From: Eledone cirrhosa
Lineage: Eukaryota
Direction of reading: 5' to 3'
Assembly: GCA_964016885.1 (NCBI GenBank)
Contig: OZ024740.1
Coordinates: forward strand, 193,316,001-193,380,000
Length of the DNA: 64,000 nt
A program made the translations under genes and the position numbers. The notes under the pieces are model-generated. The model did no database searches. It was not told the origin of the DNA and saw only the letters and a program-made list of their open reading frames with translations. The stretch's first letter is position 1, and every line of letters begins with the position of its first letter. Below, in pieces: positions 38,825-39,709 of the stretch.

Positions 38825-39709
38825 TGTACACGTACATACATATATGTATACCGACGTATAGTAGTATGTATATATATATATATATATATACATACATGCA
38901 CACATATATATATGCACGTATGGATTCACTGAACATTTATTATAATGCTCGGTGTGTTTGTAAACAAACATCCCGTATTAAGCCGTAGTGTCTAGCAACC
39001 ACCGTTGCTCGTTTGTTCAACACTGACAAAGGAACGCTGTACTAGTTCCAAGCTTGTTAGCTATCGTCAGCAAAGTATACCTTCCTGCCAGATTGTTGAA
39101 CGTATATATTTACCTTATGCATATTAACGGCTGAGTAGCCCAATTTGCATATCGAGTGGGTTAATCGGCCGGGTGCACCGAAAACGATAAACGGAAAAAA
39201 TTATATTTAAGTAACAGCCGTACTAAGAGTGGGAAATGAAATATCGTTTCATTTTTTCCGTTTATCGTTTTCGGTGCACCCGACCGATTAACCCACTCGA
39301 TATGCAAATTGGGCTACTCAGCCGTTAATATACATAAGGTAAGTATATACGTTCAACAATCTGGCAGGAAGGTATACGTTGCTGACGATAGCTAACAAGC
39401 TTGAAACTAGTACAGCGTTCATTTGTCAGTGTTGAACAAACGAGCAACTGTGGTTGCTAGACACTACGGCTTAATACGGGATGTTTGTAACACTACGGCT
39501 TAATACGGGATGTTTGTAACACACCGAGCATTATAATAAATGTTCGGTGAATCCATACGTGCATATATATATGTGTGCATGTATGTATATATATATACAT
39601 ACTACTGTACGTCGGTATACATATATGTATGTACGTGTACATACTTATATTTAAGTAACAGCCGTACTAAGAGTGGGAAATGAAATATCGTTTCATTTTT
39701 TCCGTTTAT
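38825..39709. mobile_element. Retrozyme-like element A2: ~444-nt monomer with 65-nt terminal redundancy plus an inverted copy
   Basis: 38825-39200 is the reverse complement of 39252-39642; 39201-39265 repeats directly at 39645-39709. Confidence 0.8.
39376..39418 (+). ncRNA. Type I hammerhead, family A (mirror copy 39034-39076 has GGAA instead of GAAA)
   Basis: acgttg CTGACGA t-agct aaca agct-t GAAA ctag TA cagcgt. Confidence 0.8.

Follow-up and report, generated by a model that had tools for sequence, protein, structure and literature searches.

What is the repeat that lies, together with an inverted partial copy of itself, between two (TA)n tracts at positions 38731-39744, and what machinery may have placed it there? 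The locus, here called A2, belongs to a stretch of 64,000 nucleotides of Eledone cirrhosa (the window), which is animal-type DNA with many microsatellites and retroelement remnants. Table 1 lists its features and those of a sister insertion, A1. A preliminary description had reported a 65-nt terminal redundancy and a left arm of about 380 bp that is an inverted copy, and both are found: 39201-39265 and 39645-39709 are identical letter for letter at a spacing of 444, and the left arm differs from its counterpart by nine scattered substitutions. The inverted arm measures 379 nt versus 393 nt in the plus arm, with 10 additional TA letters. The forward arm amounts to 1.15 units and contains a single forward ribozyme, unbroken at the predicted cut site. 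The layout of the repeats is not LTR-like, and no ORF longer than 49 codons occurs between them or in the unit, so that there is no RT/GIY-YIG ORF. Within the flanking microsatellite, a target duplication of A2 cannot be told apart.

Table 1. Features of the A2 locus and of the sister insertion A1, in window positions
Feature	Position	Strand	Remarks
Full A2-family unit	39201..39644	+	GC 38%; longest ATG ORF 49 codons, either strand
Tail	39645..39709	+	Exact repeat of the unit's first 65 nt; ends into (AT)n
Inverted 5'-truncated copy	38823..39201	-	Reverse complement of 39251-39643; faces the forward unit head to head; stops at the unit end without tail
Left (TA)n flank	38731..38822	.
Right (TA)n flank	39710..39744	.
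Predicted hairpin	39231..39259, again 39675-39703	+	Just before the tail end; A1 hairpin at equivalent place
29-nt tandem duplication	39461..39518	+	Only in the plus arm of the A2 locus; net +24 nt
Type I hammerhead	39361..39429	+	Core from 39382; extended stem I; 4-bp stem II with AACA loop; palindromic stem III
Second hammerhead copy	39023..39091	-	Core change GAAA to GGAA at 39048; stem I break at 39074
Octamer-like motif (putative)	39302..39309	+	In a 10-nt block, the longest non-repetitive A1-A2 identity
Sister insertion A1	35589..36488	.	Unit 36023-36488 (466 nt), with its own last 34 nt directly ahead on +
A1 truncated copy	35958-35589	-	With 73-nt tail
A1 target duplication	35579-35588 and 36489-36498		10 bp

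The redundancy and the fold-back arm correspond to the tail and the inverted copy already known from Penelope-like insertions. In the portions of the sources available to us, insertions of Penelope-like elements (PLEs) are described as partial tandems that carry a 5'-truncated, inverted copy at their 5' end and a 30-40 bp tail, and that are frequently found in (TA)n (PMC8557442); head-to-head inversions and 8-10 bp target duplications are reported as well (PMC3846280). The protein of an anole PLE was seen in vitro to cut both strands and extend them, with reverse transcription starting at two internal sites in a stem-loop and the tail being the stretch between these sites (PMC11167929); on this model, the tail end at 39709 is likely one of the internal points where reverse transcription began. 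The traits of such insertions recur here: a tail that closes one end of a partial tandem, a head-to-head inverted 5'-truncated copy, a (TA)n target and, in A1, the 10-bp duplication. They are shared with the EN+ PLEs (Penelope/Poseidon, Neptune, Hydra, Naiad), which, as far as described, also have a hammerhead in the repeat and target duplications of about 10 bp. In contrast to these elements, A1 and A2 have no RT/GIY-YIG ORF and A2 has a canonical hammerhead rather than the minimal form, in which helix II is long and helix I short; their tails of 73 and 65 nt, about twice the usual 30-40 nt, count against a PLE-type reading.

The plus ribozyme of A2 has an intact core and stems that pair with compensatory changes; on its sequence it is a type I hammerhead of the canonical kind, and its cut is predicted after 39412. 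Its stem I includes two helices beyond the six pairs first described, in the same register as in A1; we also observed a splice-donor-like stretch within this stem. As previously described, the AACA loop II and the CTAG stem III are common to the A1 and A2 ribozymes, the core and the rewritten stems are as stated, and a U-U mismatch occupies the base of A2 stem II (39389/39402). The mismatch would give no ground for expecting a dead ribozyme. U10.1-U11.1 is the mispair tolerated best (PMC3088659), and the axolotl retrozyme hammerhead HHR_Amex2, which shares the basal U-U of helix II with A2, cleaves 22% as a monomer and more as a dimer, according to the text available of PMC7229834. By itself the minimal A2 hammerhead fold is weak (-1.3 kcal/mol), and cleavage would likely be better as a dimer. 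The predicted fold of the circular A2 unit has a z of -5.5 versus 50 shuffles (-2.8 without the TA-rich end), and that of the circular A1 unit a z of -9.3. The loss of GAAA in the inverted copy was also seen again, and this second hammerhead is predicted to be inactive.

At gathering thresholds, Rfam has no match in the window, and it has none to the A2 ribozyme even at E 10; A1 is matched by HH9 below threshold only (35 bits vs 52). Rfam matches to microRNA families were rejected as noise from TA-rich or fold-back sequence. Strict ribozyme patterns found no locus in metagenome contigs and none in viral contigs, and a looser pattern returned 97 look-alike loci in metagenomes. None of the 97 is similar to A1 or A2 outside the core (the best stretch, in L003, has 31 nt), and on 20 of them a model built from A1 reaches at most 24.6 bits, versus 46-47 for A2. 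One comparison of these loci used a stem II register that is unsuited to most of them. Two look-alikes deserve mention in their own right: L003 (753-783), an otherwise unrelated hammerhead close to telomere-like repeats, whose core is identical to that of A2 at 29 of 31 positions, including the U-U; and L057 (1158-1509), an unrelated family having a head-to-head inverted hammerhead pair with an octamer-like motif between.

The preliminary description proposed that A2 is a sister family of A1, with stems I and II rewritten while pairing is kept, and saw in this selection on structure rather than sequence. The comparison agrees on each point. The two units share 298 of 485 alignment columns (about 61%), and without the TA-rich ends their alignment scores 185.5, versus 67 +/- 9 for 200 shuffles (maximum 106). 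A model made from two A1 ribozymes only finds both A2 ribozymes at 46-47 bits (46.9 for the plus copy), the next best candidate in the window scoring 13.6 bits. The ribozyme core is identical at 11 of 11 positions and the stems at 20 of 40; among seven stem pairs altered on both sides, six are still paired and the seventh is the U-U. The rough binomial P of this retention is 0.03 to 0.007, and since only two independent lineages are involved, the stem-pair comparison is not of R-scape grade.

Similarity extends to the way in which the insertions end. The plan of A1 is the mirror image of that of A2: at both loci, the unit end is where one arm stops and the tail end where the other does, and these positions are homologous to within about 1 nt for the tail end and about 5 nt for the unit end. 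In both families a predicted hairpin is followed by the tail end. Identical runs of at least 8 nt are observed at the tail end, in the 10-nt block with the octamer-like motif, in the ribozyme core and in a TA-rich stretch. The motif, which we take to be an 'octamer' in label only, its function being putative, occurs four times in the window, three of them within A1/A2 elements; as an AT-rich 8-mer is common by chance, only its conserved position counts. At the inversion junction of A1 (35959-35988), we observed a 16-nt reverse-complement piece of the tail region together with a duplication of 14 nt, which suggests template jumps.

We then turn to the family at large. Four of 23 runs were compared with 39201-39644, the stretch 39562-39644 being left out of the read comparison. 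X1 consists of contigs and is possibly the source of the window; X21 consists of raw RAD reads from another study under the same species label. The A2 unit is fitted by 7792 contigs in X1 and by 42,510 of 12,467,656 reads in X21. The family is thus very abundant, in counts of contigs and reads that are not convertible to copy number; nor was summed contig depth taken as such. Depth in X1 collapses over 39486-39515, and in X21 about 2000 of 2180 reads jump over the 29-nt duplication. Since most reads are without it, the family unit has about 420 nt, and the monomer of about 444 nt in the preliminary description holds for the copy at the A2 locus but not for the family. X4 and X5, which bear other organism labels, yielded 16 and 4 low-depth contigs almost identical to the A2 family; these may be traces or mislabelling and are not counted as cross-species evidence.

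In thirty X1 contigs the match breaks off at 39265, the position equivalent to the A2 tail end, and (AT)n follows; other contigs cross 39265 and continue into the unit body. Among the joints listed (15 of 45), seven link opposite strands away from the private duplication, for example 39210/39359 and 39268/39397. Opposite-strand joints occur in X21 and in one X5 contig; three of the seven derive from one read start, and RAD libraries produce chimeras. In these seven joints the second break always lies in the ribozyme region (39359-39430), which may reflect a RAD read-length bias or a real stall site of reverse transcription. Four joints to 39518 were not counted, as they coincide with the margin of the private duplication, nor were the X21 loose ends at 39242 and 39310, taken as library cuts (AATT sites, where many molecules end). 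A single go-back joint, 39457 to 39201, in six reads, is the sole possible trace of head-to-tail multimers among the joints listed and with 39562-39644 outside the comparison.

Variation in the reads, for which 40 of 65 variant rows are listed, bears on the ribozyme. Eleven of the rows listed concern it: five lie in loops or at the free N7 position and six in stems, with pairing kept or gained. At the stem I pair 39379/39415, the unphased variant rates of the two sides match in three read sets (0.45/0.49, 0.93/0.92, 0.44/0.48). Neither U of the U-U shows a change of 5% or more in X1, where all seven T-change places lie elsewhere; the mismatch is therefore family-wide in X1. Taken with the A1-A2 pairing and the model scores, these variant rows support the view that the hammerhead is under constraint in the A2 family.

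What, then, is A2? The locus is one insertion of an abundant hammerhead repeat devoid of ORFs, likely a non-autonomous Penelope-like retroelement (a non-LTR retrozyme), for which a Penelope reverse transcriptase/GIY-YIG protein would do the copying in trans. With the animal non-LTR retrozymes, as described in the parts available of Cervera and de la Pena 2020 (PMC7229834) and of bioRxiv 10.64898/2026.07.22.740005, A2 shares a non-coding unit of a few hundred nucleotides with GC <50% (the size range for the class being 150-450 bp), high copy number, a type I hammerhead of canonical form whose stem III is short and palindromic, and a predicted self-paired circle; the presence of two sister families within one genome, here A1 and A2, has its parallel there too. 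According to PMC7229834, most type I hammerheads of animals lie in ORF-less repeats expressed as circles, and the preprint (Li, Clavereau, Pollet 2026) argues that animal retrozymes are non-autonomous PLEs. A2 differs from the retrozyme descriptions compared in being a dispersed 1.15-mer with a PLE tail and inverted copy, in a unit size (420-466 nt for A2 and A1) at or above the 170-400 nt of studied circles, and in its conserved octamer-like motif, retrozymes being seemingly without promoters, and without a motif pointing to a partner, in the review PMC7761336 as far as available.

Alternatively, A2 may be a stump of an autonomous PLE, reduced to pLTR pieces by 5' truncation, by template jumps or by deletion, with no self-propagating mini-element behind it. 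The architecture would be the same, most PLE insertions are 5'-truncated (PMC8557442; bioRxiv 10.64898/2026.07.22.740005, both in part), and the window itself contains several PLE stumps, one of them palindromic (51971-52306). We nonetheless consider this origin improbable. The tail sequence is also present directly ahead of the body, and the A1 unit end continues into its own start, neither of which an ORF-bearing element would give. Contigs cross 39265 into the body and no ORF is present. Finally, the ribozyme of A2, with an extended stem I and a 4-bp stem II, departs from that of PLEs proper, which is mostly minimal with a long helix II in the text available of PMC4209133.

A non-autonomous retrozyme calls for a partner. 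On the plus strand at 40043-40844, we noted a broken PLE ORF fragment with CxCX5C, CxxC and CxH motifs, assigned by eye, as described for Hydra-clade PLEs, which target (TA)n. Of 30 look-alike clusters, 6 belong to a set whose best cluster has GIY-YIG on 31% of its members. The endonuclease fragment at 40410 has no Pfam match, no longer homologue at E 0.001 and no DNA in common with A2. From its sequence, the 40043-40844 fragment is a candidate for the partner class of A2. As to an autonomous partner, the PLE remnants within the window have no DNA in common with A2, and a search of one supplement file of PMC8557442 with the ribozyme and octamer strings returned no matching element.

Several other elements surround the two insertions. 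The 40043-40844 fragment is followed by degenerate tandem sequence (40787-42000) and by what may be a decayed hammerhead near 42010; another, related PLE fragment is found at 58971-59246. A third hammerhead-like repeat family (4441-4663, 39749-39893, 3620-3688), with a core starting CAGAAGA, shows one change from the consensus in all three core-bearing copies and U-U or U-C as the basal pair of stem II; at 4441-4593 the repeat is arranged as a head-to-head palindrome, and one copy adjoins the right (TA)n of A2. PLE-type stumps with long-stem-II hammerheads occur beside (TA)n at 45340-45497, 51971-52306 (a palindrome of two stump copies), 47320-47620, 49413-49690, 56480-56740 and 972-1150. Near-identical direct duplications, 46203-48113 / 48302-50204 (about 2.1 kb) and 50731-51034 / 51254-51557 (about 0.5 kb), may be tandem PLE stumps or an assembly artefact. 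LINE-type reverse transcriptase remnants with RVT_1 matches lie on the minus strand at 53748-55300 and 29105-31000, and a third, putative remnant, similar to them by eye, lies between A1 and A2 at 36640-38700 (-). Inverted-repeat pairs surround microsatellites at 497-742 and 1248-1733 (57 nt at 100%, 157 nt at 96%).

The damaged ribozyme of the inverted arm raises the question of whether the hairpin has itself been selected, the inverted arm being kept to give long double-stranded RNA that silences the family, or to block cleavage. A read-through transcript of A2 is predicted to fold back, 90% paired and with the ribozyme buried, and the inverted ribozyme bears two damaging changes. Such selection is nevertheless very improbable, the two arms having likely decayed alike, with about four private substitutions each. 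At 39283, 39332, 39421 and 39449, the family letter is that of the inverted arm (at least 98.7% in X1); these are four private substitutions of the plus arm, one of which breaks its stem I. At 39343, 39378, 39404 and 39546, the letter of the inverted arm is absent among the 40 of 65 variant rows listed; the ninth difference, 39607, lies outside read coverage. We calculate that 4 to 8 random changes touch a 12-nt core 12-23% of the time. Since the arms have likely decayed alike and the core is hit this often, GGAA is explained as an ordinary change: it is likely one of about four private mutations of its arm rather than a selected switch, and a minor GGAA class may lie among the 25 variant rows outside those listed. 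The inverted copy of A1, moreover, retains GAAA. With one forward ribozyme and a fold-back that would bury it, the A2 copy is likely a dead end. Equally hard to credit is a DNA-level fold-back element or local inverted duplication with an incidental hammerhead, which the long inverted arms and TA flanks might suggest, since the arms are asymmetric, their truncation points differ in A1, A2 and other copies, and the tail is on one arm only, which together form the signature of a retro-insertion.

For the non-autonomous retrozyme, we may propose the following course of events. Source loci would be transcribed, and the hammerhead would cut after 39412, probably aided by pairing of two palindromic stem III loops; the monomers would then be ligated into circles of about 420 nt. 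A borrowed GIY-YIG protein would make nicks about 10 bp apart in the two strands of a (TA)n target, and from each nick cDNA would be primed at one of two internal sites, separated by 65 nt: the tail end beside the hairpin and the unit end. One arm reached 1.15 units and the other stopped early, and the two are joined head to head; the joining would have taken place during insertion. About four private substitutions per arm, GGAA among them, followed. Since the forward arm crosses the cut site over 1.15 units, the template was either a circle or an uncut multimer, and we slightly favor the circle. Two published findings weigh against this course: in the anole PLE, ribozyme mutants still insert in vitro and uncut RNA is the main template (PMC11167929), and among Xenopus retrozyme dimers one of nine was active and eight were left uncleaved (bioRxiv 10.64898/2026.07.22.740005), as reported in the parts available.

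A more specific hypothesis, which we advance tentatively and regard as doubtful in its full form, is that A1 and A2 are retrozymes bearing the footprints of their mobilizer. The two arm ends would mark a pair of conserved internal sites for priming, next to a hairpin that is likewise conserved; a circle would have been copied past a full turn by a Penelope enzyme, possibly of the Hydra clade, priming from both target strands; and the octamer would be part of an snRNA-type promoter, making the unit self-transcribing. For the octamer a precedent exists in newt satellite 2, a type I hammerhead repeat of about 330 bp that is cited, second-hand in PMC2220036, as driven by an snRNA-type promoter; A2 is likened to it by description only. 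ORF-less PLE derivatives are known also from the Chlamys non-autonomous elements such as MRC1, which form pLTRs and head-to-tail insertions. These differ from A2 in being algal and in having a 3' end that resembles autonomous families, and most of their clade is without canonical hammerheads in the text available of PMC8557442.

Our literature search found no paper on the A1/A2 family or on tail-and-inversion ends in retrozymes; Repbase, most subscription papers and the supplements of PMC7229834 and of the preprint were beyond its scope and may list A2. Since the class is known and its PLE origin has already been argued in print, A2 is mostly a new family. So far, the link between retrozymes and PLEs has relied on sequence trees and on co-occurrence. 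In A1 and A2, two diverged families without ORFs, the ends of the insertions indicate which priming sites and which hairpin a PLE enzyme would need. A1 and A2 offer a compact natural substrate, with which the choice between circle and uncut multimer as template, and the existence of a promoter belonging to retrozymes themselves, become testable questions. If the more specific hypothesis is true, animal retrozymes would gain a promoter as well as a defined cis-signal for their partner, both of which seem absent in the available text of the review PMC7761336.
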